Source: Kiritimatiellia bacterium (GTDB taxonomy: Bacteria > Verrucomicrobiota > Kiritimatiellia > RFP12 > JBMNHG01). From it: a stretch of 64,000 nucleotides of DNA. Below are positions 29,626 to 64,000 of the stretch, piece by piece. Location: positions 186,001 to 250,000 of the forward strand of contig JBMNHG010000008.1 in the NCBI GenBank assembly GCA_050950285.1, in the 5' to 3' direction. The notes under the pieces are model-generated. The model saw nothing but the letters and a program-made list of their open reading frames with translations. It was not told the DNA's origin and made no database searches. The first letter of the stretch is position 1, and the number at the start of each line of letters is the position of its first letter. A program made the translations under genes and the position numbers.

Positions 29626-29626
29626 C

Positions 29627-32943: not shown

Positions 32944-35900
32944 ATGACCATGCGTATCAACCGAATTTTCAACCTGGCGTTGTTGACGGCGTTTCTGGCG
33001 GCATCCGCCCACGCCGTCTACATGGTGCATGAGTTCTACCTGCCGCTGCCGGAGGCGCAGGTGCTGCAATCCTTCCGGAGCGTGGATGGCATGAACCGGG
33101 TCAGGGCGCCGCTCGAGAGCGTCACCTCGATCGTCGTCACCGGTCCGGACACCATCATCCACTACGACCACTGGGAGGACGGCTACGAGACCGACATCAA
33201 CAATCCGGTCCAGCCGACGACCCAGATCTGGGGCGACGGCGACGACTCCAACGGCATCCCGCCCGGCTACGCCTCCGACCCCATGGGGCTGCCGATGGGC
33301 GCCGTGATCCCGCTGCGCAACGATGTCAACCTGCCGCGCAATCCCGCCGAGATCCTTTACGACGCGCGTGATCGCGTTACCGCCAGCAAGGCGCTGGTAG
33401 TCACGCGTGCCCTCTGGGCGCGCGATACCGGCCCCGTGCTGGCCGAGGCGGTCGAGGTGAGCGCCACGATCGACCACGGCACGCACTACATCGCGCCGGT
33501 AGGCGAGGATGTGGATGCCTACGACATGTTCGAGCATGTCGGCCTGGCCGTGATGGCCGATCAGGACAACACCGTCGTGACCATCGACAAGGACGGCCCC
33601 GGCGGTGCGGCGCCGGTCACCGTCACCCTCAACCGCGGCGAGAGCTATTTCGTCAACGGCGGCGTCATGCAGGGTGCCGAGGTCACGTCCACCAAGCCCG
33701 TCCAGGCGCATCTGCTGACGGGCGACGTCGGTGCCTATTACGAGACGCGCTGGTACACGCTCTTCCCCGTGGGCGACTGGTACAGCCGCTACGTGACGCC
33801 GGTCGGCAGCGCCGCCAACGGGCAGGCGTGCTTTGTGTTCCTCTACAATCCCGGCCCTGGCGCGATCACCATCACCGCCACCTCGCGTGTCGGCACGGAG
33901 AGCATCACGGTGCCGGCGGGCGAGGCCTACCGCTGGCAGGTGCCGCAGAACTCGGGCGCCATGTTCAGCAGCACGGGCGGCGAGCCCTTCAGCGCCATTG
34001 CCGCCGCCGGTGCCCACCCCTATGCCAACAACGCCTACGACTGGGGCTTCTCGCTGGTGCCCCAGGACGCGCTCTCCCCCACCGCCGTCGTCGGCTGGGG
34101 CCCCGGCAGCAGCGACATGACGCGCAACGGCAGCCCGGTGTTTGTCTCGCCCGCGAAGGCCACGCGCATCTACGTGGACTACGGCGGCGACGGCCAGGGG
34201 CCGCTGACCGACCCCAACGGCGGAAAATACGATGTGCATTACGACCTGGCGGCGCTCGAATCGAAGACCATCCTCGATCCGGACGGCGACCAGACCGCCA
34301 TGCGCATCTACACCACCGACGGCGCGCTCTTCTCCGCGGCGTGGGGGCAGGATCCCGACACGGCGCGCCCCGGCAACCCCTACCTCGACATGGGCAGCAC
34401 CGTCCTGCCGCTCCCCGAGCCGAAGCTGGTCAAGACCGCCCGCATCGTGAACGACGCCGATCCCGCCGGCCCGAGCCTCGGCGACACGATCGAATACCGC
34501 ATCGCGATCGACAACAAGGGGCTGCTGCCGCTGGGCAACACGCTGGTGCTCGACACCCTGCCGCCGCAACTGGACTACGTGGCCGGCTCGACCACGCTGG
34601 ATGGCGAGCCGCTGCCGGACGACACGGCCGGCAGCACGCTCTTCCCGCTGGACGAGACCGGCTACACCATCCCGATCATCCTGCGCGCCGGCAGCAGCGT
34701 CTTCACCTACCGGACCACCATCACCGGCACGGGCAGCATCGTCAACCGCGGCGCCGCGCCGCAGTATGAAATCTACGACCAGACCGAGGCCGATGTCCTG
34801 CCGCCCTCCGGCAGCAACCCCAGCCAGGTGCGGTTCGTGGATGAGCATGGCAACGATGTGACCGTCTATCCCGAGGGTGACGACATCTACCTCTGGTTCA
34901 AGGATCTCGATGCCAACCGCGACCCCGGCGCGGTCGAGACCATCACCCTGATCATCCGCAACGAGACCACCGGCGACTACGAGTCGATCACCCTCACCGA
35001 GACCGGGCCGGACACCGGGGTCTTCACCACGACCGCCCCAGTGCCGTCGTCGCCCTCCTCCGGCCTCGGACCGGAGGACGGCACGCTATACGCCCGCGCG
35101 GGTGACGACCTCGCCGTGTACTACGTGGATCCGCTCTACGGCGACTCGTGCAGCGACACCGCCACGCTCTCCGTGCCCAGCGAGACCAAGGTGCTCTACC
35201 TGACCGATGCCAACGGCGGCGGCGCGCCGCCGGAACCCGCCGTGCAGTACAAGCGGCAGATCACCTTCGCCAACAGTGCCTACGAGACGCTCCAGAACTT
35301 CCCCGTGCTCGTCCACCTGACGGAGGACAACTTCGATTTCTCCAAGGCCAACAGCGACGGCAGCGACATCCGCTTCTACGATGCCGACGGCGTTACGCCG
35401 CTGAGCTACGAGATCGAGTCGTGGGACGCCCTCGGCTGGGAGGCCCACATCTGGGTCAGGGTGCCGCAGATCGACAAAACCGACACCGACAGCATCTGGA
35501 TGCACTACGGCGACGCCTCGCGCACCGATGCCCAGACACCCGCCGCCGTCTGGAGCGACAACTTCCGCGCGGTGTGGCACATGGACGAGACCACGGGCAC
35601 CGTGAACGACTCCACCAGCAACAATTTGGACGGCATCCCGAATGCGAATGTGGTACTCGATGCCACCGGAAAGGTGGATGGCGCTGACCAGTATCCCGAC
35701 GGGGTGCATGGCTACACCTCATTGCCGTCCGGCCAGATTGTTCCCGCCAGAAACCCGTTCACCTTCGAGTCGTGGATCTATCTTGCGCCTAACTCAAATT
35801 ATGATCGCATCTTCGCGCAAACTCTGGCGAATTATCATTGCCAGGTCATCCGGCACGGCAACATAATCCAAGTCGGGCGCAACTATAGCGGTGCCTCCTA

Positions 35901-38900
35901 TGATTGCCCGCTGACAAAGGCTGCCGCGGTGCCGGGATCCGGAAACTGGTTCCACTTTGCGTGGGTTTTCGACGGCAGCAGCGATGCGCTCTTCGTTAAT
36001 GGCATGCCTGCTACCAGTGCGAATCAGACCCATGTGGGTGCGACAATTGCAGCCACGGAACAGACTAAAATCGGAGCACGCGACTCTTCAAGCTTCCCCT
36101 TTGGCGGCATGCTCGACGAGATGCGCGTTTCCACCACCGCCCGCAGCGCCAACTGGATCAAGGCGCAGTACGCCTCGATGAACGGCACCTTCGCCACACT
36201 GGGTGCCGAGCAGAGCTTCATTCCCGCCCCGCCCATGCTGCGCAAGCGGAAGATCACCTTCGACAACAGCACGCGCAACGAGGATCTGGCCGACTTTCCC
36301 GTGCTCGTCCATCTGACCGGCGCCAACTTTGATTTCACCAAGGCCAAGAGCGACGGCAGCGACCTCCGCTTCTACGACGCCGACGGCACCACGCCGCTCA
36401 GCCACGAGATCGAGTCGTGGGACGTGTCCGCGCAGCAGGCCCACATCTGGGTCAGGGTGCCGAAAATCGACAGGAACTCGAATACCGACAGCATCTGGAT
36501 GCACTACGGCAACCCCGCGCTGGCCGACGTCCAGAAGCCCGCCGATGTCTGGAGCGACAACTTCCGCGCGGTCTGGCACATGGACGAGACCGCAGGCGCC
36601 GCCGTGGCCGATTCCACCGGCAACGGCTGGAACGGCATCGCCACGGCGGTCGCCCGCGACACCGCCGGCAAGGTGGACGGCGCCGACGAGTACGCCGACA
36701 ACGCCTACACGACGGTGGCGAAGCCCGGTGCGATCATCTCCGCCACCAGCCCGTTCACCTTCGAGACGTGGGTGAATGTCGGGGCAGCCGATGCCTATGA
36801 CCGTATCTTTACGCAAGATACTCCTTCCGGCCAGCTCCAGATCGTTTTGGACAGCGGCAGATTGCATGTCGCGCGCTATGATGGCACCGCCGATTATGGC
36901 ATTGTGAAGGGCGCCGCCCCGGTGACGAGCGGCACATGGACCCACTTCGCCTGGGTTTTCGACGGCTCCGCCGACACCCTCTACATCAACGGCACGCCCG
37001 CCAGCACGACAACCACCTTCGGCAGCACGGCTCTTGGCGATACCTACAACTACATCGGTGCGCTCGACAAGTCCAAGAACTATTTCGACGGCAAGCTCGA
37101 CGAGATGCGCCTCGCGGCCACGGCGCGGAGCGCCGCCTGGATCAGTGCGCAGTACGCCTCGATGAACGGCGCCTTCGCCACGCTCGGCGCCGAGGAGAGC
37201 GCCCCGCTGGAGATCAACTACGCCCAAGGCGCCACCGGCGACGCCATGGACCGCATCGACCCGGTGGCAACAGCGGACACGACGACCGCCTGCACCGTGG
37301 TTCTCGACGGCAGCGCCGCCGGGACGTACAGGCAGCAGCTCACCTTCAACAACGCCTCGCGTTCCGAGGATCTGCTCAACTTTCCCGTGCTCGTCCACCT
37401 GACCGCGGACAACTTCAACTTCAAGAAGGCCCGCAGCGACGGGCGCAACATCCGCTTCTTCGATGCCGACGGCACCACGCCGCTGGCCTACGAGATTGAG
37501 TCGTGGGACGCCGACGCGCAGCAGGCCCACATCTGGGTCAAGGTGCCGAAAATCGACAGGAACTCGAACACCGACAGCATCTGGATGGAGTACGGCGACC
37601 CCGCGCTGACGGACGCCCAGACCCCCGCCGCCGTCTGGAGCAGCAACTTCCGTGCGGTGTGGCACATGGACGAGCGATCCGGCACGCAGGTGGCCGATTC
37701 CACAAGCTACGCTCGGCATGGCGTCGCCACGGAGACGCTGATGCGCGACCTCATCGGGCCGGTGAACGGGTGCGACGGGTATGTCGACGGGGTGGCCTAC
37801 ACCACTTTGCCAACCGGCGCGATCATTCCCGCCAACAGCACGGCCTTCACCTTCGAGTCGTGGGTCTGGGTCGGGAAGACCGAGGACTACGACCGCCTTT
37901 TCACGCAGACCGTGGACAATCGCGACTATCAGGTCGTCTGGGTCAACAACCGGCTGGAGGTCGTGTTGTACGATAGTTCCTATAATCGCAATCAACCTAA
38001 GGCCGCCGCCGCGCTGCCGTCCAAGACCTGGGTCCACTTCGCCTGGGTGCACAGCGGCAGCACCGAAACCCTCTACATCAACGGCGTGGCCGCGACGGCG
38101 TCGCCCTCCTCCGGCTGGTATGCGGGCGTTGGCCAAGGCAACTTCATCGGCGGACACAACACCACGGACCGCCATTTCGACGGGCAGATCGACGAGATGC
38201 GCATCGCCTCCGTTGCGCGGAGCGCGCACTGGATCAGCGCGCAGTATGCCTCGATGACCGGCACCCTCGTCACCTACGGCGATGCGCAACTGATTTCCGC
38301 GCAGAACCTGCCGCGTGCCGCATTCACACAGGCGCCCGTCTTCTGCAAGGATTTCGTGATGCCCGCCGCCGGCGCCCTCTCCGCGCGTGTCTTCGTGGCG
38401 GCCATGGACGGCGCCATGGCGGTGAACCCGGCAATCTACGGCACGCTCAGGCACGGCACGACGCAGCTCGCGGATCTCGGCGCCCCCACGGCCACCTTCA
38501 TCGGCTTCGGCACGGGCGGGGAGGCAATCTACCGCCTCGACTGGAGCGCTGTGCTGGACACCGGAACGACGATACCCGCCGGGCAGGCGGTCACCATCGA
38601 GATCGCCACCGCCGACAATTCCCCCTTCGCGGTGATCTACGACAGCGCCGCCTACCCCTCGCGCGTCAGCCTGCCCGCCGAGACCGTCATCGAGGTTGAC
38701 TCGCTGGCGATCTACGACGCCCCCTATCCCGGCGGCAGCCCGGTGGGTGCCGCCGTCGCCGGCTCGACGGTCTACGTCCGCGCGGTTGTCAGCGATCCCT
38801 TCGGCGCCTACGACATCACCAGCCTCGGGCTCGCCATTCCGGCGGCGGGCGTGGATGTGACGCTCGGTGACGACGCCGTCGTCGCCGCCACACCCTGCAC

Positions 38901-41703
38901 CAAGACCTACGAATACGCCTGGACTCCGGCGGCGGAGGGCAGCTATTCGGTCGCGGTCACGGCGCACGAGGGCACCGAGGGAATCACGGACGTCGCCGCG
39001 ACGCGGCTCGATGTGACCTTCCTCGACTTCGGCACGCCAAGCATCACCGAGTTCACCATTACCGACAACGGCTCCGCCACCAACATCTATGATCCCGACC
39101 AGACGGTCTATATCCGCGTGACCGATCTCGATCAGAACACCGATCCCAATACGCCCGACACGATCACGGTGACGGTCACCACCAGTAGCTGGCGACACCG
39201 AGACTATCACGCTCACCGAGACCGGTTCCAACACCGGCATCTTCACCGGCCGAGGTGCCCGCCAGCTCGACGAACGCCGGCGGCTGACGAGGACGGCACG
39301 CTCCATGCGCCCCCCGGAACGGTGCTGGATGTGGTCTACGTCGATCAGTACGATCCCACCGACACCTCCAGCGACACGGCCATCGTGACGCAGCCGTCCG
39401 GCACCTCCGGCTTCAGCGTCAGGAAGCGGCGCGCCGACGGCTCCACCAGCCCGGTAATGATCGGCGATACGGTGGTCTACCGCGTACGGGTCTCCAACAC
39501 CGGCACGACGACGCTTGATCCGATTAGCCTGACCGACACCTATCCCGCCGCCTTGCGCTTCATATCGGCCTCGCCTGCGGCGGACAGCCACAACGCGACG
39601 CAGCGCCTGGTGACCTGGACCAACATCGGCCCGCTGGCCGTTGGCGGCTACCGCGAGTTCGAACTGGCATTCGAGGCGCTCTCCGCCGCCCCGGCGGCGG
39701 TCAACAGCGCCACCGCCACGCATGCCGGCACCCCGCGGAGCGACTCCGCCGTCGTCGAGATCGTCAATGCCGGCCACACGGTCGCCAAGACGCTGCTCTC
39801 GACCAAAAACCCTGTGAGTTACGGCGAATACGTCGAATACCGCATCGTGGTGGCCAACACCGGCAGCACGCGCATCACGGAGATCCCGCTGGAAGACACC
39901 TTCAGCGCCGCCTATCTCGCCTACGTGCCCGAGTCGGCGACGATCGAGCCCGACGGCATCGGCGCGGGCATGCTCTTCTGGGAGAACATCGCGGCACCCG
40001 ACGGTCTCGCCGTGGGTGGCGCGATCACCAACGACCTCGTGTTCCAGGTGATCGGCGCCGGCAGCCCGATCGTCAACACCGTCGCCGCCGACTACTCCGT
40101 GGACGAGTACGGCAGCCCCGTGCCGCCCGCCCGGGACGCCGACACGAACCTCGTGAGCACCGCCGGCCTGATCAGCGGGCATGTCTGGAACGACCTCGAC
40201 AGGAACCAGGCCGGCGACGCCGGCGAGCCGCGCCTCCCGGGCGTCGAGATCAGGCTCTTCGACGCGGCCGGCGAACTGGTGGCGACCACCACCACGCTGG
40301 GCACGAACGGCTACTATGAGTTCCCCAACCTGCCCGACGGCACGTACACCGTTGTCGAGACCGACCCGCCCGGCTTCGGCAGCACGGGCGACGTGCAGGG
40401 GGCCAACGACAACCGTATCACGGTGACCATCGACACGGGCAGCGTCCACGCCAACCAGGACTTCTTCGACTACCGCCTGCCACTCGGCCAGCAAGCCTCG
40501 ATCGGCGGCACCGTCTGGAACGACACCAACCGCGACGGAGTGGTGGATGACGGCGAACGGGGCATCCCGGGCGTGACGATCGCACTCTACAGGGACGTCA
40601 ACAACAACGGCGCGCATGACGCCGAAGACGAGCTTGTGCGCTATGCCCTTACCGATCTCGACGGCGGATACGCCTTCGGCGCCCTGGAAGCTGGCAACTA
40701 CATCGTGGTCGAGACCGACCCGCCGGGCTACATCAGCACCGGCGACATCTCCGCCCCGAACGACAACCAGATTCCCGTAAGCGTCAACGCCGGCGACAAG
40801 GTGACGGGGCAGGACTTCCTCGACGCCAGGATACAGCGTCTCTACGGCTACGCCTATTACGACGCGGACGAAAGCCTGACACGCAACGAGGGCGACGGCG
40901 TGTGCTCGGGCATGGTCGTGCAGGTCTGGCAGAACCATGTGTTCGTGGCCGCGACGATAGCCGACGACGAGGGCTTCTACGAGTTCCTCCATCTGTTGCC
41001 GGGAACCTACGAGGTCCGCTTCATGGGCGACATCCATGCCCTGACCGCCATCCCCGCCACCGGCACCCCCGCCGCAGACGACGTCCACCGCAACCGCGCG
41101 GTGGCGGACGGGGCTGGCTACGCCACCGCGACCTACAGTCTCTACCCGGGCCACGGTGTCGGCGCCGATGCCGGCGAGCCGGTCAACGCCGGCTTCACCG
41201 GCACGGGCCCGTCGAGTTCGGGCATCGACCTCCAGGCCTTCCAGGGCGCGGACGGGGTGTACGTCGAGTTCGTGGCCCACGACGTCGAGGAGGACGGCGA
41301 AATCACGCTCTTCCTGATCGGGCCGGACGGCAGGCCGCTCTGGCACGGCTCCTGCGAGGTCGGGGCCGGCGGCGATTTCATCTGCCGCTTCCGCGTGCCC
41401 GGACTCGAGGCCGGCGGCAGATACCACTTCATGGTGCAGGACGAGGTGGGCCAGTTCTGGGAAGCCTATGGTGTCGAGGTGAAGCCCTTCGCCGCCGAGA
41501 TGATCCGCATGTCGCTGGCGGGCGTGACGCTGGGCTTCGAGAGCCTGCCCGAGCGCGAGTACGCGATCCAGTGGACGCCGCGCCTCGGCGATCCCTGGCA
41601 GACGGTGGCGACCGTCTTCTCCGAGGGCCGGCACACGACGGTCGTCGTGCCGCACCCCGACCGCACCTCGCCCAGCGGCTTCTTCCGCATCGTCCTGCAG
41701 TAG
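32944..41703 (+). CDS. Giant secreted adhesin-like protein 1: IgGFc-binding-like N-terminus, DUF11, 3x(DUF2341+LamG), 2x DUF11, 3x SdrD-B, shared C-terminal module
   Basis: Signal peptide MRINRIFNLALLTAFLAASAHA; GDTIEYRI...DTLP...YVAGS (DUF11); NFPVLV...DIRFYD...LSYEIE.W...WVRVP x3; ISGHVWND...GYYEF.NLP.G.Y (SdrD-B); ends GFFRIVLQ; local three-step frameshift at 39190-39282. Confidence 0.9.
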   Translation: MTMRINRIFNLALLTAFLAASAHAVYMVHEFYLPLPEAQVLQSFRSVDGMNRVRAPLESVTSIVVTGPDTIIHYDHWEDGYETDINNPVQPTTQIWGDGDDSNGIPPGYASDPMGLPMGAVIPLRNDVNLPRNPAEILYDARDRVTASKALVVTRALWARDTGPVLAEAVEVSATIDHGTHYIAPVGEDVDAYDMFEHVGLAVMADQDNTVVTIDKDGPGGAAPVTVTLNRGESYFVNGGVMQGAEVTSTKPVQAHLLTGDVGAYYETRWYTLFPVGDWYSRYVTPVGSAANGQACFVFLYNPGPGAITITATSRVGTESITVPAGEAYRWQVPQNSGAMFSSTGGEPFSAIAAAGAHPYANNAYDWGFSLVPQDALSPTAVVGWGPGSSDMTRNGSPVFVSPAKATRIYVDYGGDGQGPLTDPNGGKYDVHYDLAALESKTILDPDGDQTAMRIYTTDGALFSAAWGQDPDTARPGNPYLDMGSTVLPLPEPKLVKTARIVNDADPAGPSLGDTIEYRIAIDNKGLLPLGNTLVLDTLPPQLDYVAGSTTLDGEPLPDDTAGSTLFPLDETGYTIPIILRAGSSVFTYRTTITGTGSIVNRGAAPQYEIYDQTEADVLPPSGSNPSQVRFVDEHGNDVTVYPEGDDIYLWFKDLDANRDPGAVETITLIIRNETTGDYESITLTETGPDTGVFTTTAPVPSSPSSGLGPEDGTLYARAGDDLAVYYVDPLYGDSCSDTATLSVPSETKVLYLTDANGGGAPPEPAVQYKRQITFANSAYETLQNFPVLVHLTEDNFDFSKANSDGSDIRFYDADGVTPLSYEIESWDALGWEAHIWVRVPQIDKTDTDSIWMHYGDASRTDAQTPAAVWSDNFRAVWHMDETTGTVNDSTSNNLDGIPNANVVLDATGKVDGADQYPDGVHGYTSLPSGQIVPARNPFTFESWIYLAPNSNYDRIFAQTLANYHCQVIRHGNIIQVGRNYSGASYDCPLTKAAAVPGSGNWFHFAWVFDGSSDALFVNGMPATSANQTHVGATIAATEQTKIGARDSSSFPFGGMLDEMRVSTTARSANWIKAQYASMNGTFATLGAEQSFIPAPPMLRKRKITFDNSTRNEDLADFPVLVHLTGANFDFTKAKSDGSDLRFYDADGTTPLSHEIESWDVSAQQAHIWVRVPKIDRNSNTDSIWMHYGNPALADVQKPADVWSDNFRAVWHMDETAGAAVADSTGNGWNGIATAVARDTAGKVDGADEYADNAYTTVAKPGAIISATSPFTFETWVNVGAADAYDRIFTQDTPSGQLQIVLDSGRLHVARYDGTADYGIVKGAAPVTSGTWTHFAWVFDGSADTLYINGTPASTTTTFGSTALGDTYNYIGALDKSKNYFDGKLDEMRLAATARSAAWISAQYASMNGAFATLGAEESAPLEINYAQGATGDAMDRIDPVATADTTTACTVVLDGSAAGTYRQQLTFNNASRSEDLLNFPVLVHLTADNFNFKKARSDGRNIRFFDADGTTPLAYEIESWDADAQQAHIWVKVPKIDRNSNTDSIWMEYGDPALTDAQTPAAVWSSNFRAVWHMDERSGTQVADSTSYARHGVATETLMRDLIGPVNGCDGYVDGVAYTTLPTGAIIPANSTAFTFESWVWVGKTEDYDRLFTQTVDNRDYQVVWVNNRLEVVLYDSSYNRNQPKAAAALPSKTWVHFAWVHSGSTETLYINGVAATASPSSGWYAGVGQGNFIGGHNTTDRHFDGQIDEMRIASVARSAHWISAQYASMTGTLVTYGDAQLISAQNLPRAAFTQAPVFCKDFVMPAAGALSARVFVAAMDGAMAVNPAIYGTLRHGTTQLADLGAPTATFIGFGTGGEAIYRLDWSAVLDTGTTIPAGQAVTIEIATADNSPFAVIYDSAAYPSRVSLPAETVIEVDSLAIYDAPYPGGSPVGAAVAGSTVYVRAVVSDPFGAYDITSLGLAIPAAGVDVTLGDDAVVAATPCTKTYEYAWTPAAEGSYSVAVTAHEGTEGITDVAATRLDVTFLDFGTPSITEFTITDNGSATNIYDPDQTVYIRVTDLDQNTDPNTPDTITVTVTTSSWRHRDYHAHRDRFQHRHLHRPRCPPARRTPAADEDGTLHAPPGTVLDVVYVDQYDPTDTSSDTAIVTQPSGTSGFSVRKRRADGSTSPVMIGDTVVYRVRVSNTGTTTLDPISLTDTYPAALRFISASPAADSHNATQRLVTWTNIGPLAVGGYREFELAFEALSAAPAAVNSATATHAGTPRSDSAVVEIVNAGHTVAKTLLSTKNPVSYGEYVEYRIVVANTGSTRITEIPLEDTFSAAYLAYVPESATIEPDGIGAGMLFWENIAAPDGLAVGGAITNDLVFQVIGAGSPIVNTVAADYSVDEYGSPVPPARDADTNLVSTAGLISGHVWNDLDRNQAGDAGEPRLPGVEIRLFDAAGELVATTTTLGTNGYYEFPNLPDGTYTVVETDPPGFGSTGDVQGANDNRITVTIDTGSVHANQDFFDYRLPLGQQASIGGTVWNDTNRDGVVDDGERGIPGVTIALYRDVNNNGAHDAEDELVRYALTDLDGGYAFGALEAGNYIVVETDPPGYISTGDISAPNDNQIPVSVNAGDKVTGQDFLDARIQRLYGYAYYDADESLTRNEGDGVCSGMVVQVWQNHVFVAATIADDEGFYEFLHLLPGTYEVRFMGDIHALTAIPATGTPAADDVHRNRAVADGAGYATATYSLYPGHGVGADAGEPVNAGFTGTGPSSSGIDLQAFQGADGVYVEFVAHDVEEDGEITLFLIGPDGRPLWHGSCEVGAGGDFICRFRVPGLEAGGRYHFMVQDEVGQFWEAYGVEVKPFAAEMIRMSLAGVTLGFESLPEREYAIQWTPRLGDPWQTVATVFSEGRHTTVVVPHPDRTSPSGFFRIVLQ
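35248..38290 (+). repeat. Three intragenic ~1-kb DUF2341+LamG repeats
   Basis: Units start near 35248, 36241 and 37327; near-identical DUF2341 halves, divergent LamG cores. Confidence 0.85.
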
Positions 41704-42395: not shown

Positions 42396-44681
42396 ATGAA
42401 GAGAACCAAACGATATGTTCGAGCGCTTACCCTGGCGTTTTTGACGGTGTGCCTGGCGGTCTCCGCCCGGACGGTTTCCATGGCGCAGGAGCCCTCCCCG
42501 CCGCCTTCCGGCACGCAGTGTGCCGTTTGCCAGTGGCTCTACTTCGCCACCAACTTCAATGCGTTCATCTTCGGCGACCTCACCCCCTATGGCGGCGACT
42601 GCGAGGCCCGGATCGCGGTCGGCGGCACCTTCACCTTCGAGAACAGCTACAGCGTCGGCTATCCCGTGGTCGGCGAGCCGCTGCCCACCTTCACCAACGG
42701 CCTCACCGACATGCTCATCGTCGGCGGCGACCTCCACGACGACTGCTTCGGCGTCAACGGCAACATCGTCTACGGCGGCACCCGCTACGGCCCCACGCGC
42801 TATCCGTCCAACGGCAACCTAGTCTACCATGCCACCAACATCACCTTCGACGCGGCCGACGGCGGCAACGTGTCGCGCGACGGCACCGGCAAGACGTGGG
42901 CCGAGCTCTACGCCATTGTCGCGGCGGCCAGCGCCCGGATGGCCGCCCTCGAGGAGCGCGGCGTCGTGTCGAAGAACCTCACGCAGCGGTACTCCGCTTC
43001 CTTGACGGGCTCCGACCCCTCGCTCAACGTCTTCCACGTGAGCGCGCAGGAGTGGAGCAAGACATCCGCCAGGTACACCATCGAGGCGCCCGAAGGCTCC
43101 ACCGTGCTGATCAATATCCACGGCGGCGATGTCGCCATCACCAACGGCGGCATGACCCTCGTCGGCATCGAACGTGGCCGCGTAATCTACAACTACGTCG
43201 ATGCGACCCACATCGCCACCAAGAGCTTTTCGCATCACGGCTCGCTCCTGGCGCCGTACGCCTCCGGGACCTTCTCCGGCGGCTCCATCGACGGCTACGC
43301 CGTCTTCGGCGGCACCGTCGAGAGCAGCAACGGCTTCGAGTTCCACAACTTCCCCTTCAAGGGCGGCTGCTTCGACGGGGATTCCCATCTGCTCGGCAGC
43401 ATCGGCAACTACGTCTGGGAGGATCTGAACGGCAACGGCATACAGGAGTCCGGCGAGGCGAGCATCTCGAACGTGGTGATGCGGCTGACGGATATCCAAG
43501 GCAATGAGCTCGACACCATGCTCACGGACGCGGCAGGCTTCTACACCTTCACGAATCTGTCGGCCGGCACCTATCTGGTGCAGGCTCTGCGTCCGTCCGG
43601 CTGCTACACCTGCACGATCGCGCGTGCACGCGCCGGCACGCGCACCGGCTATGCCAGAACGCACGACGGCTATGTCCGCACACCTGCCGGCGACATCAGT
43701 CCGGACGACCACGTGGACAGCGACGGCGACGAGTTCGGCTGGAGCCTGCCGATCCAGCTCGGGGCGGGCGAACACCGGACCGACATCGATTTCGGGTTCT
43801 ACCGGTTGGCGCGGCTCTATGGCTATGTCTACCACGACGCGGACAATAGCCTGACGCGCAACACGGGCGACAAGGCCGTCGTTGGAATGTCCGTGCAGCT
43901 CTGGCGCGACGGGGCGCAGGTTGCCGCGACCAATGCCGCCGCCGACGGGTTCTACGAGTTCTGCGGCCTGACGCCGGGAGCCTGCGAGGTGATCTTTATA
44001 TGCTCCACCAACGCCCTGACCGCCGTGCCTGAGGAGGGCTCCGATGCCGCCGGCAACCCGGAGCGCAACCGCGCGGTGGCGGTCGAGCATAATACAGCCA
44101 CCACGAGCTACACGCTCTATTCGGGACATGGTGTTGACGGCGGCGACCCCGGCGAGCCGGTCAACGCCGGTTTCACCGGCACGGGGACCATGAGCTCGGG
44201 CATCGACCTCCAGGCCTACCAGGGGGCGGACGGGGTGTACGTCGAGTTCGTGGCCCACGACGTCGAAGAGGACGGCGAAATCACGCTCTCCCTGCTCGGC
44301 CCGGACGGCGGGCCGCTCTGGTACGGCTCTGTCGCGGTCGAGGCCGGAAGCGAGTCCATCTGCCGCTTCCGGGTGCCCGGGCTCGAGGTCGGCTGCGCCT
44401 ACGACTTCGCGCTGCGAGACGAGGTCGGCCAGCTTTGGAAGGCCTATGATGTCGAGGTGAAGCCCTTCGCCGCCGAGATGATCCGCATGTCGCTGGCGGA
44501 GGTGACGCTCTCCTTCGAGAGCCTGCCCGAGCGCGAGTATGCGATCCAGTGGACGCCGCGCCTCGGCGATCCCTGGCAGACGGTGGCGACCGTCTTCTCC
44601 GAGGGCCGGCACACGACGGTCGTCGTGCCGCACCCCGACCGCACCTCGCCCAGCGGCTTCTTCCGTATCGTCCTGCAGTAG
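42396..44681 (+). CDS. Secreted protein 2: choice-of-anchor A domain, 2x SdrD-B, shared C-terminal module
   Basis: Signal peptide MKRTKRYVRALTLAFLTVCLAVSA; FNAFIFGD...EARIAVGG...TVLINI.G...GSLLAPYA...GFEFHNFPF; SIGNYVWEDLNGNGIQE...DSDG...DIDFGF; ends GFFRIVLQ. Confidence 0.9.
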   Translation: MKRTKRYVRALTLAFLTVCLAVSARTVSMAQEPSPPPSGTQCAVCQWLYFATNFNAFIFGDLTPYGGDCEARIAVGGTFTFENSYSVGYPVVGEPLPTFTNGLTDMLIVGGDLHDDCFGVNGNIVYGGTRYGPTRYPSNGNLVYHATNITFDAADGGNVSRDGTGKTWAELYAIVAAASARMAALEERGVVSKNLTQRYSASLTGSDPSLNVFHVSAQEWSKTSARYTIEAPEGSTVLINIHGGDVAITNGGMTLVGIERGRVIYNYVDATHIATKSFSHHGSLLAPYASGTFSGGSIDGYAVFGGTVESSNGFEFHNFPFKGGCFDGDSHLLGSIGNYVWEDLNGNGIQESGEASISNVVMRLTDIQGNELDTMLTDAAGFYTFTNLSAGTYLVQALRPSGCYTCTIARARAGTRTGYARTHDGYVRTPAGDISPDDHVDSDGDEFGWSLPIQLGAGEHRTDIDFGFYRLARLYGYVYHDADNSLTRNTGDKAVVGMSVQLWRDGAQVAATNAAADGFYEFCGLTPGACEVIFICSTNALTAVPEEGSDAAGNPERNRAVAVEHNTATTSYTLYSGHGVDGGDPGEPVNAGFTGTGTMSSGIDLQAYQGADGVYVEFVAHDVEEDGEITLSLLGPDGGPLWYGSVAVEAGSESICRFRVPGLEVGCAYDFALRDEVGQLWKAYDVEVKPFAAEMIRMSLAEVTLSFESLPEREYAIQWTPRLGDPWQTVATVFSEGRHTTVVVPHPDRTSPSGFFRIVLQ

Positions 44682-54398: not shown

Positions 54399-55418
54399 AT
54401 GAAGTCGGAACACCAGCTCGATGAAACCGTGCCCACCCGGGAACAGATCGACAAGATGTATGCGCTTGCCAAGCGGGTTCTCGACATCTCGCCGTGGGAG
54501 TTCATGGTGGAGCTTCAGATACTGGCCGTCCAACACTCGGCGGAAGATACAAGCTTTTTGATTGTGACCGGTGCCATGGGCGAGTATTTTTCAGTCCAAA
54601 TCTATTCGTCTTTTCACGATCTTGACGCGATGCTGAGGCTCGATGAGGGGAGCCACCAGGACATGGTTGATATCATGTTCGGGATGCCGCAGCTCAAGCT
54701 GGTCTTCGCAAAGGCGAACGAGCTGCTGCCGGGAGACCGGGAGAGGATCAAGGCGTCGGGCATCGCGTTCAAGAAAGGCAAGAATCCCAGCCTTCAATCG
54801 ATGATGCCCGGATATGACAACTGCTTCCCGGGCGGCAGGGAGCTTGATCGCATGGCGGCATGCATCGAGCAATTGCTGTTCATGCTGGAAGGGGGGCAGA
54901 CGATTCCGGAAATCAGCTCTCCCATGGATCCCATCTGTACCCGCGTGTGCCGGGAGGGTGGCTGGGAGCAGGAGATGAAGAGTCACCCCCTGTTGCATCC
55001 GGAGCCTGATTTGTCCGTTTCGGAAGAACTGTTGAATCAGGTGCTCGGTCTGCCGAGGCGGGACAGGTCCATGGCTTGCGGCTGTTTCGTCATCCCGACC
55101 CGTTTCCGTGAAAAGGGACGCCGTCCGACCGTGCCCCGGGCATGCATGCTGATGGATGTGGAGTCACAGTTTATCATCGGCATGGAACTGCTCGTGCCGG
55201 AGCCGGGGAAGTTGTGGAATATCGCGGCCGCGCTTGACACGATCCTCAAGAAGTTCGTCACGCTCGGCTTCCGTCCATCCCGGTTGAGAGTCAACGGCCC
55301 TCTGCTCCAGGAGGTTGGGGAGCAGTTTTGCACCATGATCGACGTGGACTATGATGAACGCCACTTCCAGCCCATGTTGCAGGCCTTTGACGAGATCATG
55401 AGCCGGCTGGGATGCTGA
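54399..55418 (+). CDS. Hypothetical cytoplasmic protein, AT-richer than its neighbours, between adhesin paralogues 3 and 4
   Basis: RBS AAGGA; MYALAKRVLDISPWEFM...TGAMGEY...PSLQSMMPGY; putative promoter TAGACC-17-CATATT at 54299-54327. Confidence 0.75.
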   Translation: MKSEHQLDETVPTREQIDKMYALAKRVLDISPWEFMVELQILAVQHSAEDTSFLIVTGAMGEYFSVQIYSSFHDLDAMLRLDEGSHQDMVDIMFGMPQLKLVFAKANELLPGDRERIKASGIAFKKGKNPSLQSMMPGYDNCFPGGRELDRMAACIEQLLFMLEGGQTIPEISSPMDPICTRVCREGGWEQEMKSHPLLHPEPDLSVSEELLNQVLGLPRRDRSMACGCFVIPTRFREKGRRPTVPRACMLMDVESQFIIGMELLVPEPGKLWNIAAALDTILKKFVTLGFRPSRLRVNGPLLQEVGEQFCTMIDVDYDERHFQPMLQAFDEIMSRLGC

Positions 55419-55454: not shown

Positions 55455-55475
55455 GTAATCGGTTGGTGACAGGGG
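55455..55475 (+). repeat. 21-bp direct repeat, copy 2
   Basis: Exact match to 23034-23054. Confidence 0.85.
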
Positions 55476-55690: not shown

Positions 55691-55720
55691 TTGACTCGGT
55701 TGTTGAGGCCAACGTATACT
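55691..55720 (+). promoter_or_regulatory. Putative promoter of adhesin gene 4
   Basis: TTGACT, 18-bp spacer identical to that of gene 3, TATACT. Confidence 0.65.
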
Positions 55721-55773
55721 GCTTGAGCAAACGCAGGGCTTGCAACACGCATAGGGCAACTCCGCACACGAAG

Positions 55774-55892
55774 GAGGCTCTCGCAAAACCCAGACGGACT
55801 CCAGCCCGCCGGGGACGGCGGTCCCCAGGGGCGAATCGGGAGGGTCGGACTCTGTCCCGACCGGTTTACGCAAGAGGTTTTGCAAGTGCAAA
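55774..55892. mobile_element. Possible degenerate MITE-like insertion in the gene 4 leader
   Basis: CTCGCAAAACC (55780-55790) pairs with GGTTTTGCAAG (55876-55886) at 10/11 and encloses a REP-like unit at 55805-55828; absent from the paralogous gene 3 leader. Confidence 0.4.
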
Positions 55893-55905
55893 CGAAGGTA
55901 CTCCC

Positions 55906-58900
55906 ATGAAAGCAGCAGCAAACAAAGCCATCCGTCGCGGTCTTGGCTTTTTCCCCACAACTGTCATGGCCTTTTCGCTGGGCACCGCCGCCCTGGCCGC
56001 GCCGATCATCGACAACAATGCCGGCGCCTGGACGGACACGTACCACGACAACCTGGGCGTGCAGGACACCTCGAATACGGTTGTCGATTGCGTTTCGGGC
56101 AGCGTCAGGCTGGATGCGGGCCAGACCTCGGGCTCGTATGAGACGGTGCGCATCAAGCCGCCGGGTTTCAGCGCCTGGGGCAGGCTCAAGCTTTCCGGCG
56201 TCTGGTCGGCGCCCGCCGACGTTCAGGTGAGCGTGATCGATGCGGCTACCCGCGCGACCCTCCTTGGCCCTACTCCCTACACCGGCGCGATTCCGCTCGC
56301 GGGGATCGATCACGCGGCGCACCCGGAAGTGGCGGTCGTCGTGACGCTCGCGGAGGGCATGGTGTCGCCGATGGTCTCCGATCTGAGCATCACGTGGACG
56401 CCGTGTTCCCATCTGCTGCTCGACACGTCGGCCCCTGCGTCGGTGATGGCGGGCCAGCGGATTGTCTACCGCCTGCGCTACTCGGTCAACTGCGTCGAGG
56501 CCCGAAACCTCGTCGTGTGGGACAAGCTGCCGTGCGAGGCCGACGGCACGATGATCTATCCGGATGATTACGGGCAGGACGACAACGTCTCCTTTGTCGA
56601 GGCCTCGCAGGGCGGCGCCTACACGGCGGAACCGGTGACGGTATACGGCGTGGAGATCCCCGGTGGCAGCGTCTATTGGGATCTCGGGACCAAGCGGGAA
56701 GGCACGACCGAGACGCTCTGGTTTACCGTGGGCACGAAAAATGGCACGTTGAACGGCACCCGGGCGGTCAACAGCGCCAGCGCCACGGCCGACAATGCCG
56801 CCACGGTGCATTCTGCCGCGGCCGAAACGCAGATCGCCAGCCAGCCGGCCCCCAAAATCAAAAAGCACCCCGGGACCGGCATCTACACGCTTCAAAATGG
56901 CCATCACACCTTCCCCGACGCGCTGAACTATTTCATCATCGAGGTGCGGAACGAACGTCTTGGCGAAGGGCGCGAGACGATGTACGGTACCGTCGTCTAT
57001 GACGACCTCTCCAGCCTCATGGGCAAGATCGACCCCGACTTTGGCGGACCGGCCCTGCCGGTGGCGAACATCTCCCCCGCAGGCGGCTTCTATTCGCCGG
57101 CCTACACGCCGCCTTCCGGCGGGGCAACCTTCCCGGCGGTCGTCTGGACGAATTATCCGACGCTCGCATCCGGCGAGAAGTTTGTCGGTCACTTTGCGGT
57201 CAAGATGCTGGATGACGCTGCGCTTGGCGCCGATGGAAGCTACACCAATACCGCCTGGGTGGATTCGCAGAAGACCGATCCGATCCAGAGCTCCATGGAG
57301 GTGGCCTGGCCCGTGGAGGAGATCCCCTACGGCATTTTCGCCAAGGGCGACAATCTCGATGCCAAGTTCCAGATTACCGCGCTCGAGGACGATCGCGAGC
57401 TGTTCGTAAGGCCCGGCGATTCCTACCCGTACGGTCTCGTCGTCAACAACGCCGGCATCGTGGCGCTTAACGATGTCATTTTCGTCGACAGGATCCCCGA
57501 CGGCACCACCTTCAAGAGCGCCTGGTTCACCGATCCGTGGCTCCAGACCAACGCGGTGGTCTTCTATTCCACGGTCACGACGGCCGACACGAACACCCCG
57601 CCCGCCTATGGCGCGGCCAACGTGCCCGGCGATATCGACGTCGACGCCAACGACTACTGGAGCCCGGAGCCGCCCGCGGATCTTGCCGACGTCACGTGGG
57701 TGGCGTTCTACATCCCTGCCGTCAACGCCCATTATGCCGAACCCGGGTCGGACGGCTGGATCGACGGCGCGCCGCGCAGGTTCGCGGTCGGCTACTTCGA
57801 CGTGACGGTCAGCCCGACGTTCCTCGACCCCTACCCCTGCTTTGACAAGCTGATCGTCAACCGCGGCCATTTCAACGTGTTCGCCTATACGCCGCTGGCC
57901 GGCGGCGACAAGGTTCCCAAGAGGGTGTATGCGACAAACGACGAGACCACACGCGTGGCGATCGACAAGCCCAGGCTCGAGATCACCGCTCCCGGCACGG
58001 TGACGCCCCCGGTGCTTGGAGAGCCGGGCCAGCTCGCCTATTCCGTCAGCGTGACGAACGCGGGCACCGCCATGGCCGAGGACCTGCTCCTCGAGATGCG
58101 CTGGCCGAGTGTCAACGTCAACGGAGTCCGCCAGTATCTCTCCTTCGACAGCGTCTCGCCCGCCTCGATCCGCGAGTTTGATCCCGAGAACGGGCGCCTC
58201 GTCCTGGAGCTGGGCAATCTCGCCCCCGGCGCCGGGGTCACGGCGACGCTCAAGGCCACCGCTCCGGAGGGTCTCGCCTTCGGCCAGCAGCTCACCTTTT
58301 CCTCGACGGCCACGGCTGGATCGCTCTGCGCGCCCGCGCCGGCCTCCGACGTCGCCTCCGCCGTCACTCGCTTCGCGCCGCGCTTGAAGGTCTTCAAAAA
58401 CGACGTGCTCGACCTGATCCCCTCCGGTTCCACCGTCGATTACACGCTGACGGTCTTCAACACAGGCGACGCGCCTTCGCACGGCACCTTCGTGGTGGAC
58501 CGCATCCCCGACGAGATGGTGCCGGTCCACGCCACGGGCCCCAATGGCGAACGCGTGTGGTTCTCCGCCGCCGACAGCATCCCTCCGTCGTTCCTTACCG
58601 CCATGACGCCGATCGACGCCGCGACGATCGCGGCGAACTTCACGCTTGGCACGCAGGACGGCGATGTCTGGACCAGCCCCTTCGGCGAACAGGCCCGCTG
58701 GGTCGCCTGGGAGATGGATTGCGCGATCGGCGAGTCGAAGTTCTACCCCGTCGGCTGCGCGCACGCCGTCGGCCTGCGCCTCCGGAACGACCGCGACGGC
58801 CCCGGGCCGGGAACCGCGGGTTCGGCCGAGGGCACCCAGATTTTCAACACCGCAGGCGTCTTCTCCGACGAGCTCCTTCAAGCCGTCGGCAACGAGGTCG

Positions 58901-61900
58901 TGACGACCATCAAGGTCGCCCCGGGGATCCGCGTCGGGAAGACGGGGCCGGATGTCGTCAGCAAGGGCGACACCTTCACCTGGACGGTCGACTACTACAA
59001 CAACTCCGGCATGGATGACGACGTCGTGACGATCGAGGACATGCTGCCTGCAGACGTCGAGTTCCTCTCCGCGACGCACGCGTGGAATGCGCTCGCGACC
59101 ACCAACGGCGCACCCGCCGGCAACAGCGGGCTGTCCGTGCCGTCCACGGTCGAGACGCTTCCCGACGGCCGCACCCGCCTCGCCTTCCACATCGCCAGCA
59201 CGAACGGCGGCTACCGCGGCGCGAACGCGAAGCTGCTGACGGAGGAAGGCGGCACGCTGACGATCAACGTCCGCGCCAAGGCCGATCTGCCGAGCAACTC
59301 CGAACTGCTCAACCGCGCCACCGGCACGGCGGAGATCAACGACGAGACGACGACCTCGTCCGACGAGCACCTCGTGCTGGTGCGCAACGCCGAGATCCGC
59401 GTGCGCAAGGTCGCCGCGCCGGAACTCCCGGTTTCCGGCGACACGGTGACCTACAACCTCGTCGTCGGCAACGTCGGGCAGATGGCCGCGCGCGACCTCG
59501 TCATCACCGACCACCTCCCGGAGGGCGTCACCTTCGTGACGAATTCCGCCAGGGTGCTGACTGCGACCTACACGATCGGCCAGCCCGCCGTCTCCGGCGG
59601 CACCCTGACGTGGAGCACGGCCGGCGGCAACGCCTTGACCAGGACCGGCCTGCCCCCCGGCGAGCTGCCCGCGCGATCCGGCGACGTCGTGATCCAGTAC
59701 AAGGGCCTTGTCGGCTCGACGGTTCCGTCCGGCACGCATCTGCCCAACCGCGTCACGGTCGGCACCGTCACGCCTGAAGATGGCTTCGAGCCCAACGAGG
59801 ACGAAGCTTCGGTCGACACGCCGTACCCGGATGCCGTCATTCTCAAGAACGGCCCCGACATCGTCCAGCCGGGGGATCGCTTCGACTGGACGATGACCTA
59901 CTACAACGCCACGCGCCAGGCCGGCCAGAACGTCTACATCATCGACACCCTGCCGGACGCCGATGGCGACGGCGTCGCCGACGTGACTTTCGTCGAGCAG
60001 CGGGCCAAGGGCCCCGGAGCTGTGACGGCGTACTACCACACCAGCACGAACGCGACGGCGCCCGCCTTCAATCCGGCCGATCCGCTCGCGGGCGGCTGGA
60101 CGGCCGCCCCCGTCGTCCCCGTGCGCCACATCGCCTGGGTCGTCGGGACGCTGCCCGGCTCCGCAGGCCCCTACACCATCACCGTGACGGTGATCGCCAA
60201 GCCGGCAGCGGGAACGGAGCCTCTCGCGGCGGGCACGGCCCTGCACAACGCCGTCGAAATCGTCGTCTCCGGCATGGACGAGAACCCGGACAACAACACC
60301 GCCGGGCATACCGTGCGCACACCCTCCAACGACGTGGCGCTTACGAAGACCGGATCCAGCGAAGGGAAAACCCCCGGACTCGTGCCGGGCGATCCGATCG
60401 CCTACGAGATCGTCGTCGAGAACACCGGCACGGAAACCGCCTACGGCATCGAGGTCGCGGATATCCTGCCCGACGGCCTGCAGCTTGCAGGGGGTGGTGC
60501 CGCAGCCACCCTCGCACTCGTCGATGCCGATGGCGGGCCGGTGCTGCCGGTGGATGCCAACGGCAACGACATCGCCACGGCCGTGCCGCTGACGCGCACG
60601 GTCACGGCGGACGGCGTCGTCTGGTATTTTGGCTCGACGGATGCGGGCGGCGCGAACTACTACCGCAACGTCGGCATCCTCCCCGGCCAGAGGCAGGTCA
60701 TCACGCTCGAGGCCGTCGTCGCACCCGATGTCCCCAGCGGCGCGCGCCTTTTCAACACCGCCACCGTCACCCTCCGGAACCGCAACGATGCGGAGCCGCA
60801 GGAGGCGTATCTGGGCAACAACACCGACAGCAGCGAAACCGTGGTTTACCGCCCCGACGTCGCCGTGCGCAAGTCCGTCGTGGATGCCGCGACCGGGGAT
60901 GCCGGCTGGACCGAGGCCGGCGGCCTCCTCACCTACACCATCGAGTACAACAACCTCGGCGACACGGTGGCGAAGGATGCGGTCCTCTCCGAGATCGTCC
61001 CCGAAGGCACCACGCTCGTCTCGGTACGGAACCCCGCCGGAAGCACGGTGGCCTGCTACCCGGCAGAGGGCGCGGAGGCGCGGAGCTTCGATGTCCACCT
61101 CGGCGATCTCGGCCCCAACCCCAACAAGGCGGCCATGATGCACTATGCCGCGAAGGACGTCGTCATAACCACCAACAATCTGGGCTTGCTCTCGGCCGGC
61201 GATGAGTCGTTTCAGAGCATCGCGCCGATCGGGGATGTCAATGGCGATGGCATCCCCGACCTGATTGTCAGCGCGTACATCCACAACGATGAAGAAAACA
61301 ACCAAAGATCGGGTGGAGCCCGGGTGCTTCTGATGGACTCCGATGGCAGCGTCAAGGAAATCGTGCAACTAACCAACGGACACAGCGGCATCCCTCCTAG
61401 AACGTTTCAGCATATGGATGAGGTCGGCTTTTGCGTCGCGGGGCTAGGCGATGTCAATGGTGATGATGTGCCGGATGTGATCTTGTCCCAGACGAAAGGC
61501 GATGCAGGCAACAGCGTCGCGGGTGCTTTTATCATTCTGCTCAACACCAACGGGACCGCCCAGTCGGTCATCGAGCTGCATAACGGGAAGAACGGCGTTC
61601 CTCTGGAGTTTTTTGGCCTCAAAACCAGTTCAAACCCCAGTCTTTGGGGAGGCACGGATATGGATGGCGACGACATCCCCGATGTCTTCATCGGGGATTG
61701 CACGTATGAAAACCAGTTGGTTTTTTACCTCTTGCTGTTGGAGGAGAATGGTACCGTCAAGCGCGCCATCGACTACCGGCCGGGCACCAATGGCATCCCC
61801 CTGATTCCAGGAGGCGACCTGCGCCAGGAAAGCGAACCTGTCGTCATCGGCGATGTCGATGGCAATGGCGTGCCCGATCTCTTTATCGGTCATGAGTCCT

Positions 61901-64000
61901 TGACGGATAGCAGCGGTGGCGGTTTTGTCGTCCTGCTCGAAACGAACCTCGCCGCCAAGAGCGTCGTGCGCCTTTCCAATGGACAGGGCGGCATACCGGA
62001 CGGCTGCTTCAACTCCAACGCGTATGTGGGGGATCCTGTCTGTCCGCTTGGCGACTTTGACGGCGACGGCGTTCCCGATGTTCTGCTCGGCGCATCGGGT
62101 CTGACCGATGACAACGGTTCTGCGAGCGGCGGCGCGGTGATCCTGCTGCTTGAAACCAACGGGACGGTGAAGGCCGATGGCGTGATCAAGCTGGCCAATA
62201 TTGCTTCGGGCACGTCAATGATAAGCGACACGGAAATGGCTTATGATATCACGGGGTTTGTCAGAGTAGCCGGCGATGTCGATGGTGACGGCGTTACCGA
62301 TATCCTGCTTGGCGGCATATACGCAATCGTCGACCTCGATATTGGCTGGCTGACGGGATACTACGGGACCATGCGCCTGCTGCTGCTGAATCCCGACGGC
62401 ACCGTCAAGGCGGTCACGCTCATGACAAACGGCAAAGGCGGCATGCCCGAGCCCGCGACTCCCGATGGCTCGGTCGTGTCTCATAGCAGCGCTGTGGCGG
62501 GCGACATCAACGGGGACGGGATTCCCGATTATGTGTCTCTTACAGGCTTTAACTTGTTCAACCCAGAGGAATGCTTCGCATCTCTTTCGACCGTCATGCT
62601 GGGGCTCGTGCCGATGTCCGAGGCCGAGCAGGAGATCGCCTTCGGCGGCCCGGCCACGATCGTGCGCAGGCTTCAGGCCGGCGACGACATCGTGGCGTGG
62701 GACAAGCTGGCGCTCGTGGCGGATCTCCCCGCCGGCGCGTCGATCGCCTGCTCCATCGGACGCCTCGTGGACGGCAACCCCGTTTACGACCTCGGCCCCG
62801 CCTTCACGGACATCCCGTATCCACTCCCCCAGAGCGGGCTGGACATCTCGGCCATACCGGCTGGGAACAGGGATCTCTTCGTGAAGATGGCCTACACCGG
62901 CACCGAGCCGCTGACGGTGGACCATCTCTCGCTCTCCTACGCGGCATCCGACACGTGGCCGTCGTTCACCTTCACGGTGCTCGTGGACGATCCGGTCGCC
63001 GCCTGCGTGCTTCCGGACATCAACAACACCGTCACGATCAGCACCTCCACGCCCGAGAGCGACATCAGCAACAATACGGCCGAGGCCGACATCATGGTCA
63101 AAACCCTCGACCTCGAGGTGGCGAAGACCGCCGACGCGGTTGCGGTCGTGACGAACGATCTGGTGACGTTCACCCTCGCATGGCGCAACAACGGCCCGTC
63201 GCCCGCCGTCAACGCCGTGCTCGAGGATGTCCTGCCGGCCGGCCTGACCTTCGTGTCGTCCGAACCGCCGTACGACGCGGCGACCAACAACGTCTATTCC
63301 TGGAACCTCGGCGATGTCGCGGCCGGCGCCAGCGGCGTCGTCACCGTCGTCGCGCGCGTCGAGGCCGGCACCGAGGGCCGCACGCTCGTCAACGTCGCGC
63401 GCATCGGCAACGACCGCCAGGAGAGCGACTACACCAACAACGACGACTCCGTTCCGGTGGTCGTGAAGCCGCTCGCCAACGTCTGGATCCGGAAGTCCGG
63501 CCCCGCCACCGTTCGCCTCGGCGGCACGGCCGTCCATACCCTCGCCTACGGCAACAACGGCAACGCCGCCGCCGCGAACGTGGTGATCGCCGACACGCTG
63601 CCCGCCGGCATGACCTACGTCGGCGCCGTTCCGTCTGCCGCGATGACTTCGGACAATCCCAAGACCTGGTTTATCGGCACCCTTGCGGCCGGCGCCACCG
63701 GTACCGTCACCGTCACGGTCAGCGTGGACAACGACTTCGCCCTCTGCGGCACGCCGCTCGTCAACCAGGCCGAAATCACCACCGACGTCGGACCGAGGTG
63801 ACGCTCTCCGACAACACGGACGACCATTCCGTCGATCCCGTTGTCGTGCCCGCCTCGATCGGCGGCACCGTGTGGCACGACGCGAACCGCAACGCCACGA
63901 ACGACCTCGGCGAGGCGGGCATCGAGTCCGTGCGGATCGACCTCTACGAGGACGTGCCAACGGGAACGGCATCCTCGATGCCGGCGATGAATGGCTGGAC
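55906..64000 (+). CDS. Giant adhesin-like protein 4, tandem paralogue of protein 3; frameshifted near 63783-63794 and 63957 as given, homology runs off the window end
   Basis: Colinear with gene 3 from APIIDNN onwards; seven FG-GAP repeats at ~61230-62530; ORF stops at 63801 but DNA homology to 52850-53060 continues to 64000. Confidence 0.85.

Follow-up and report, generated by a model that had tools for sequence, protein, structure and literature searches.

Verrucomicrobiota carry very large enzymes and adhesins at the cell surface, and in the genome studied here neither a type IX secretion system (T9SS) nor an autotransporter was seen that would explain it. How such proteins are sorted is the question raised by a locus in a 64,000-nucleotide stretch of a Kiritimatiellia bacterium (assembly GCA_050950285.1, contig JBMNHG010000008.1, positions 186,001 to 250,000), hereafter the window, which belongs to contig C8 of a genome of 4.05 Mb and 99% completeness (G000). 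Three genes of the window (32944-41703, 42396-44681 and 45025-54123) end in the same module of 162 amino acids (aa), flush with the stop codon and composed of a domain A followed by a terminal domain B. We found that the module is two separable parts with different distributions and not one tag. The reading we prefer, with a probability of about 0.5, is a two-part sorting signal in which B would be an export or attachment tag and A would mark the cargo for clipping by a C25 peptidase at P-x-S-S/G-I. The features of the window that carry the argument are as follows.

32944..41703, + strand: gene 1, 2919 aa; signal peptide, DUF11, three DUF2341/LamG units, SdrD_B repeats, A+B module
41209..41226, + strand: linker motif P-S-S-S-G-I of gene 1, just ahead of the first strand of domain A
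41209..41481, + strand: domain A of gene 1, a seven-strand sandwich of fibronectin type III (FN3)/immunoglobulin (Ig) type, distant kin of the A′ domain of PorU-like C25 proteins
41482..41700, + strand: domain B of gene 1, six-strand and FN3-like, without strand G, ending in GFFRIVLQ
42396..44681, + strand: gene 2, 761 aa; signal peptide, choice-of-anchor A domain, SdrD_B, A+B module
44187..44678, + strand: A+B module of gene 2 (A 44187-44459, B 44460-44678)
45025..54123, + strand: gene 3, 3032 aa; signal peptide, DUF11 repeats, FG-GAP repeats, SdrD_B, A+B module
53629..54120, + strand: A+B module of gene 3 (A 53629-53901, B 53902-54120)
55906..64000, continuing past the window, + strand: gene 4, a paralogue of gene 3 (69% identical), with A+B ending about 1.07 kb past the window

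Domain searches agree with the original prediction that three window proteins with unrelated cargo (DUF2341/LamG, choice-of-anchor A and DUF11/FG-GAP) end in a common module, and the N-termini look like Sec signal peptides, as it had proposed, both by eye and by a crude hydropathy rule. Its distinction of the module from LPXTG and PEP-CTERM signals, based on the lack of a transmembrane helix or basic tail, was borne out, neither motif being matched, the last 170 aa containing no transmembrane stretch (best 19-residue hydropathy 0.8-0.9) and the last 20 aa carrying a net charge of +1. No autotransporter barrel (PF03797) was matched in the window proteins, again as expected, or in the genome, and the controls matched. 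The fourth paralogue does reach the same ending, which was located just past the window. The window copies need a caution: being 96-99% identical in the DNA of B and 84-98% in that of A (58-73% in protein over the last ~430 aa), they are recent relatives and therefore not independent evidence. Two further copies of the module lie 120-130 kb away. SdrD_B, described as part of the ending, does precede the module in the window genes, but in many homologues other domains stand there.

A search of 1.84 billion representative sequences with the module gave 124 matches, and the close homologues carry the source labels Kiritimatiellales or Kiritimatiellia. Domain A is present in 110 of 143 pooled homologues; B accompanies it in 109 of these and lies at most 12 aa from the end in 108, the exceptions being one protein that seems truncated and one that is frameshifted. 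The crude signal-peptide rule was passed by 55 of the 85 A proteins of at least 330 aa, and many of the remainder look like fragments. More than 100 proteins with unrelated cargo share the module, diverging to about 30% identity; A never occurs more than once per protein, and its invariant residues are kept across about 110 unrelated cargo proteins. The AlphaFold model shows two sandwiches of 7 and 6 strands at a mean predicted local distance difference test (pLDDT) score of 91.6. No model of Pfam or NCBIfam covers the module, no curated cut-off was reached and no described sorting or binding domain was matched there, so that it is indeed unnamed; PDB sequence searches named neither domain, and an Atlas search with the module returned unnamed clusters only, with scores under 0.9. 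Literature searches, which were thin on subscription journals and left supplements unopened, gave no description of the module or of a PorU homologue in Verrucomicrobiota.

The two domains differ in distribution. At E < 0.003, B is found in 33 of the 2601 called genes of the genome, 32 of which end within 3 aa of the stop codon, the 33rd being the frameshifted gene 4. The B profile gave no match to reversed decoys, and three internal matches of lower score (E 0.006-0.05) were discounted as likely noise; 20 of the 33 proteins had helped to build the profile, and an iteration seeded from A+B homologues alone reached 23. In the phylum, B occurs in 133 of 301 genomes (87 of 100 others of its own class, 45 of 200 elsewhere and none of 48 in one family), mostly without A, and among 47 new database proteins 46 have a terminal B, on cargo that includes peptidases, CotH, LamG and PKD. 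Full A+B matches outside the class were absent from the phylum genome sample. The proposal of a folded export tag thus stands in that the module is folded, unnamed, C-terminal in 108 of 110 and, in the genomes searched, restricted to the Planctomycetes-Verrucomicrobia-Chlamydiae lineage; it does not stand for A+B as one tag.

Folded alone, B (~70 aa) reached a pLDDT of 91. Its best structural neighbours are FN3 domains, but with Z below 8, and weak Pfam fn3 matches were seen in 3 of 26 members. The alignment covers the first 70-80 residues of FN3 domains of 89-102 residues (Z up to 7.7, a middling score; root-mean-square deviation (rmsd) 2.5, 69 aligned), and because it stops there B is taken to be without the last FN3 strand. 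Foldseek with B gave no match at E ≤ 0.001, the module matching generic FN3/Ig only, and the C-terminal domains (CTDs) of T9SS cargo were not among the 50 matches listed for B in the structure comparison, where they may stand lower down. Among orthologous C25 enzymes the ending is either a B-type domain (11 of 15 rows) or a short G-T-hydrophobic tail of 7 residues (4 of 15), an exchange that would be the behaviour of interchangeable sorting tags. This short tail, G/A-T-four hydrophobics-R/K, is a second terminal tag, carried by 65 proteins in the genome versus 0.1 expected by chance (e.g. L048:7152-9809). Altogether, B is probably a sorting or attachment tag. The neighbours of B genes in the genome show no recurring partner; one B gene adjoins pilin-like genes.

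Domain A is confined to a few Kiritimatiellia, being found at E < 1e-10 in 19 of 401 genomes of the class (a twentieth, weak match was dropped), and it is here that a partner gene was seen. A C25 peptidase profile built from five A-adjacent enzymes matched 144 of the 401 genomes, 18 of the 19 A genomes among them, and 16 of the 19 genomes scoring best for C25 are A-positive. An A+B gene is followed downstream by a C25 gene at no more than 4 kb in 10 of the 19 A genomes, across five families (G000, at its second locus and not the window array; G194, G364, G473, G509, G514, G534, G544, G549 and G553), and in one further genome (G519) contig ends cut the locus. All three loci from an independent search have C25 beside A+B, one of them probably on the same contig as that of G549. 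In a quick tree of 29 C25 sequences, a single branch, with 97 in the Shimodaira-Hasegawa-like approximate likelihood ratio test, unites the 18 sequences of A-positive sources with one whose genome is A-negative; the rows were chosen by profile similarity, which makes the result partly circular, and split, truncated and unparsed ones, among them those of A-negative G248 and G438, were left out. The enzymes of G514 and G544 fall in the A branch despite low profile scores.

Many C25 enzymes begin with an FN3-like domain, A′, which the A profile matches at P 3e-5 to 4e-5 (probability 69-74%, versus 8% for B and A′). Fusions occur in other genomes, either as giant cargo-A′-C25-B proteins or as cargo-A′-B beside a C25 without A′. 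At one such locus (L122:3412 to L123:5656) a 7424-aa protein ending in A′-C25-B is followed by a stand-alone C25-B gene and by cargo with A′ and a different tail. A′ also precedes different tails (ending KLTTTW.. or YLPL..), which we take to be typical of other phyla, in six database proteins without C25. We conclude that A is very likely tied in function to this PorU-like C25 clade. The profiling for a co-occurring protease or translocon proposed earlier was therefore productive for the protease, which tracks A, and for B it yielded no translocon.

The best PDB match of the enzyme is PorU (6za2, 4e-16), ahead of the gingipains (8e-8), and the catalytic His and Cys are invariant in 29 of 29 rows. 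It also matches the NCBIfam model T9SS_sortase (NF033707), with 84 bits for the enzyme of this genome and a best E of 3e-30 among five, without reaching the cut-off of 420 bits. Inspection of the linker ahead of A gave the pattern P(79%)-[TLM]-[SA]-[SA]-[GAS]-[IV], with G/A/S in 88% and then I/V in 87%. This agrees with the cleavage preference X/(GSA)(VLI) given for PorU in an excerpt of PMC4560394, though a passage of PMC11285876 cites work that calls the PorU site sequence-independent. In gene 1 the predicted cut falls between the Ser ending at 41220 and Gly-Ile, before the first strand of A. Cleavage at the A linker by C25 is, on this pattern, somewhat favoured.

The C25 gene is followed by PqqD-like, precursor-like and HprK-like genes, sometimes with radical SAM genes. 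Between the PqqD-like and HprK/ScmC-like genes we observed a conserved open reading frame of 49-59 aa with a leader-like Y-x-A-P-x-V motif and a D-x-G-G-N-Y-V core, in what is apparently an unnamed peptide-maturation cassette.

L048:9964-10125, also at L110, L111 and L126-L129: cassette with the short reading frame, following the C25 gene; ABC transporter genes, in some cases also radical SAM genes, lie close by

C25 has a signal peptide, and the cassette proteins look cytoplasmic, judged from their N-termini. In two genomes (L127:1-3623 and L129:1-4433) the cargo-C25 operon stands upstream of polysaccharide export genes (an EpsL-like outer-membrane protein and a chain-length determinant), which are a possible source of a glycan acceptor.

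We picture the process as follows. Sec would carry the proteins across the inner membrane, as their signal peptides suggest. B, with its observed position and interchangeability, would act as the general terminal tag of the phylum for surface delivery or retention, probably binding a receptor by accepting a beta-strand. In a subset of the cargo, A would be a mark for the PorU-like C25 cysteine peptidase, the genomic link being observed and the chemistry presumed. The enzyme would recognise A and cut before its first strand at P-[TLM]-[SA]-[SA]/[GAS]-[IV], removing A+B, and the cargo would then be freed or joined to a surface acceptor; that the reaction is transpeptidation rather than plain release is doubtful. 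A wider version, which we regard as speculative and unlikely, would make PorU-type sorting a portable module independent of T9SS, in which A or A′ marks C25 cargo and each lineage supplies its own terminal tag; in Verrucomicrobiota, an undescribed outer-membrane route of export would read B through strand complementation, and the acceptor for the cargo would be made by the adjacent cassette.

Several results weigh against the two-part signal. B is tandem (2-3 copies) or internal in 8 of the 47 database proteins (7 with extra copies, 1 internal only) and likewise in two proteins of G004, so that it need not be terminal; the original prediction had named an internal module as grounds for refutation, and for B that is in part what is seen. 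In family f8, B is present in 9 of 9 and C25 in 0 of 24, so B does not need the enzyme. As to A, 3 of the 19 best-scoring C25 genomes lack it, C25 lies elsewhere in the genome in 7 of the 19 A genomes (G224, G254, G339, G351, G521, G592 and G596), and one (G517) lacks C25, its A gene looking broken. The window array itself has no C25 neighbour, the C25 gene of this genome being 130 kb away on the same contig. The overlap of A with C25 is partly circular, the profile having been built from A-adjacent genes, and related genomes are not independent. A and A′ are both FN3-like and show modest similarity, and the cleavage motif looks like a common beta-strand start. An Arg722 after the catalytic Cys is conserved in PorU, according to the same excerpt of PMC4560394; in this clade its position is Gly or Ala (Gly in the profile consensus), which weakens transpeptidation. 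C25 is also tied to the cassette, which could be its real job.

The remaining points concern the export route. PorV (PF19572) gave no match in the genome, with a control above cut-off in Bacteroides thetaiotaomicron, and Por_Secre_tail (PF18962) gave none, with controls matched only below cut-off. SprA/Sov (TIGR04189) was not matched in the genome, but control genomes gave no match either, and PorP/SprF (PF11751) also went unmatched, with no control above the cut-off. A crude heuristic beta-barrel scan of the 2601 called genes, a set in which some genes are missed, revealed no giant SprA-like barrel. The genome has five PEP-CTERM matches and six secretin genes (contigs C2, C3, C6 and C8), several of them beside giant TPR-like proteins or PilM-type operons, and secretins are the sole candidate channel type found in it. 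In a panel of 64 genomes selected by B status, secretins occur in 62 irrespective of B and the Amuc_1099 pilus-like family in 53, with many of the latter matches being short repeats; neither separates B-rich from B-negative genomes. No candidate in the panel tracked B, which counts against the two-part signal, and the dedicated outer-membrane secretion system of the original prediction stays a proposal.

Because the window modules are 84-99% identical in DNA, the shared ending might be ascribed to recent duplication with gene conversion among tandem genes, with no sorting role; the terminal position across a family of more than 100 proteins, with unrelated cargo and identity down to about 30%, largely refutes this, and we consider it very improbable. 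An explanation closer to the original prediction, with A+B as the single folded tag of one dedicated, undescribed outer-membrane secretion system, would account for B following A in 109 of 110 proteins, for the superposition of A on the CTDs of RemA and mirolase and for a genome without PorV, Por_Secre_tail, PorP or autotransporter matches. Most carriers of B lack A, though, many unrelated Ig-like domains match A as well as the CTDs do, and the peptidase is the only gene found to track A, which together make a single tag improbable.

Two further explanations accept the separation of A from B. B may be a non-covalent anchoring or binding domain, its fold completed for example by a strand of a surface protein, rather than an export signal, and A a passive spacer left by the splitting of a cargo-A′-C25-B fusion. 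Such fusions exist, cargo followed by C25 is the order expected of a fission product, B is without strand G and can be repeated, and secretins are present with or without B. A mere spacer would hardly be expected to keep its invariant residues and a Pro-x-Ser-Ser linker on about 110 unrelated cargos, once per protein, or to have spread to genes far from C25, and the 7-residue tail with which B is exchanged on orthologous enzymes is too short for a folded binder; we regard this account as unlikely, though less so than the others. The genomic link of A with C25 fits equally well a docking site, where A would hold the enzyme on a surface stalk as a scaffold, the cargo would stay uncut, and the substrate would be found elsewhere, e.g. 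in a small peptide of the adjacent cassette. The loss of Arg722 and the PqqD-like, precursor-like, HprK-like and radical SAM genes after C25 agree with this, but the fused enzyme sits behind the cargo at the tail end, as processing predicts, the linker fits the PorU cleavage pattern, and a signal peptide would separate the enzyme from cassette proteins that seem cytoplasmic. Docking is accordingly a weaker candidate than anchoring, though stronger than the single tag, and the two-part signal is retained as the preferred reading.

Other features of the window and its surroundings were also noted. Upstream, VTC-domain, DUF4956 and CotH-kinase/LamG genes run directly up to it (28151-32599), and one gene within it carries no module.

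54399..55418, + strand: DUF7309/DUF6930 gene between genes 3 and 4, without the module and outside the system as far as tested

The reading frame of gene 4 is broken at 63801 in the assembly, and its module ends at the contig position corresponding to window 65072. In all four metagenome runs compared, one of which may be the source sample, the contigs are without the additional bases that the assembly has at window 63783, 63793, 63957 and more sites past the window, and one run contig spans gene 4 sequence with zero substitutions. The breaks are therefore most likely assembly errors and the gene is probably intact. Half or more of the sequence words of this region were found mostly in bioreactor or anaerobic-digester runs (12 rows); the four compared were taken from these and confirmed its presence. 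None of the runs listed was of RNA, which carries no weight as to expression. In gene 1, a short out-of-frame stretch at 39190-39290 lies between two compensating frameshifts, probably an assembly error because, read in the other frame, the stretch agrees with a preceding repeat of the protein; several other giant genes of the assembly are similarly fragmented. Just past the window and after gene 4 (L001:5271-8228) is a C10 peptidase with I69 inhibitor and MAM domains that ends in B alone, and a close paralogue of it separates the second A+B locus from the C25 gene. Another recurring C-terminal ending (…N…D.P.E…P..WG…) was seen in about 10 proteins of 1200-1450 aa of this genome, e.g. at window 10964-14461.

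With a tag (B), a candidate enzyme and a predicted site of cleavage, surface sorting becomes a testable question. If the A-C25 processing step is true, PorU-type chemistry extends beyond T9SS, and the A and B profiles could predict secreted proteins across a phylum of polysaccharide degraders.

Among known systems, PEP-CTERM/exosortase and LPXTG/sortase resemble the module in having a C-terminal tag on unrelated exported proteins and a linked processing enzyme of cysteine type. They differ in that the module is folded, without a transmembrane helix or basic tail, and the linked enzyme is a C25 peptidase. Both A and B superimpose on FN3 structures (PF00041 superfamily), but B stops after the sixth strand and is terminal with few exceptions, and the curated cut-offs are not reached. 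Chaperone-usher pilins use donor-strand complementation of an Ig-type fold missing its last strand; B, unlike these, is of FN3 type and terminal on giant cargo, and no donor strand, chaperone or usher came to light, with no search aimed at them.

The closest comparison is with T9SS cargo CTDs (PF18962/TIGR04183) and PorU (PG0026, a C25 enzyme, 6za2) of Bacteroidota. Common to both are the signal peptide, the unrelated cargo, a small terminal beta-sandwich, a C25 enzyme closest to PorU with His and Cys intact, and a small then an aliphatic residue opening the removable part. The analogy drawn earlier is stronger than proposed, a PorU homologue now being linked to A. A has the same 3+4 sandwich type of seven strands, but is not terminal, and in the structure comparison with T9SS CTDs that had been suggested it superimposes on those of RemA (Z 8.2, rmsd 2.5, 75 aligned) and mirolase (Z 8.0, rmsd 2.4, 76 aligned), scores that are tied with those of many unrelated Ig-like domains. 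One Atlas cluster resembling A′ carries Por_Secre_tail in 79% of its members (score 0.86), which is a lead only. On the other side, module proteins match no CTD model of Pfam or NCBIfam. A passage of PMC11285876 places the T9SS C-terminal motif on strand 7 of the CTD, whereas the terminal B has six strands and is without the motif-bearing seventh. The genome has no PorV or PorP match, and the enzyme lies far under the PorU cut-off, is without Arg722 and is encoded beside cargo and a peptide cassette or fused to cargo. The system is not a member of T9SS, since it falls short of the CTD models and of the PorU cut-off and has neither the seventh strand nor a PorV match, but it would work like T9SS cargo together with PorU.

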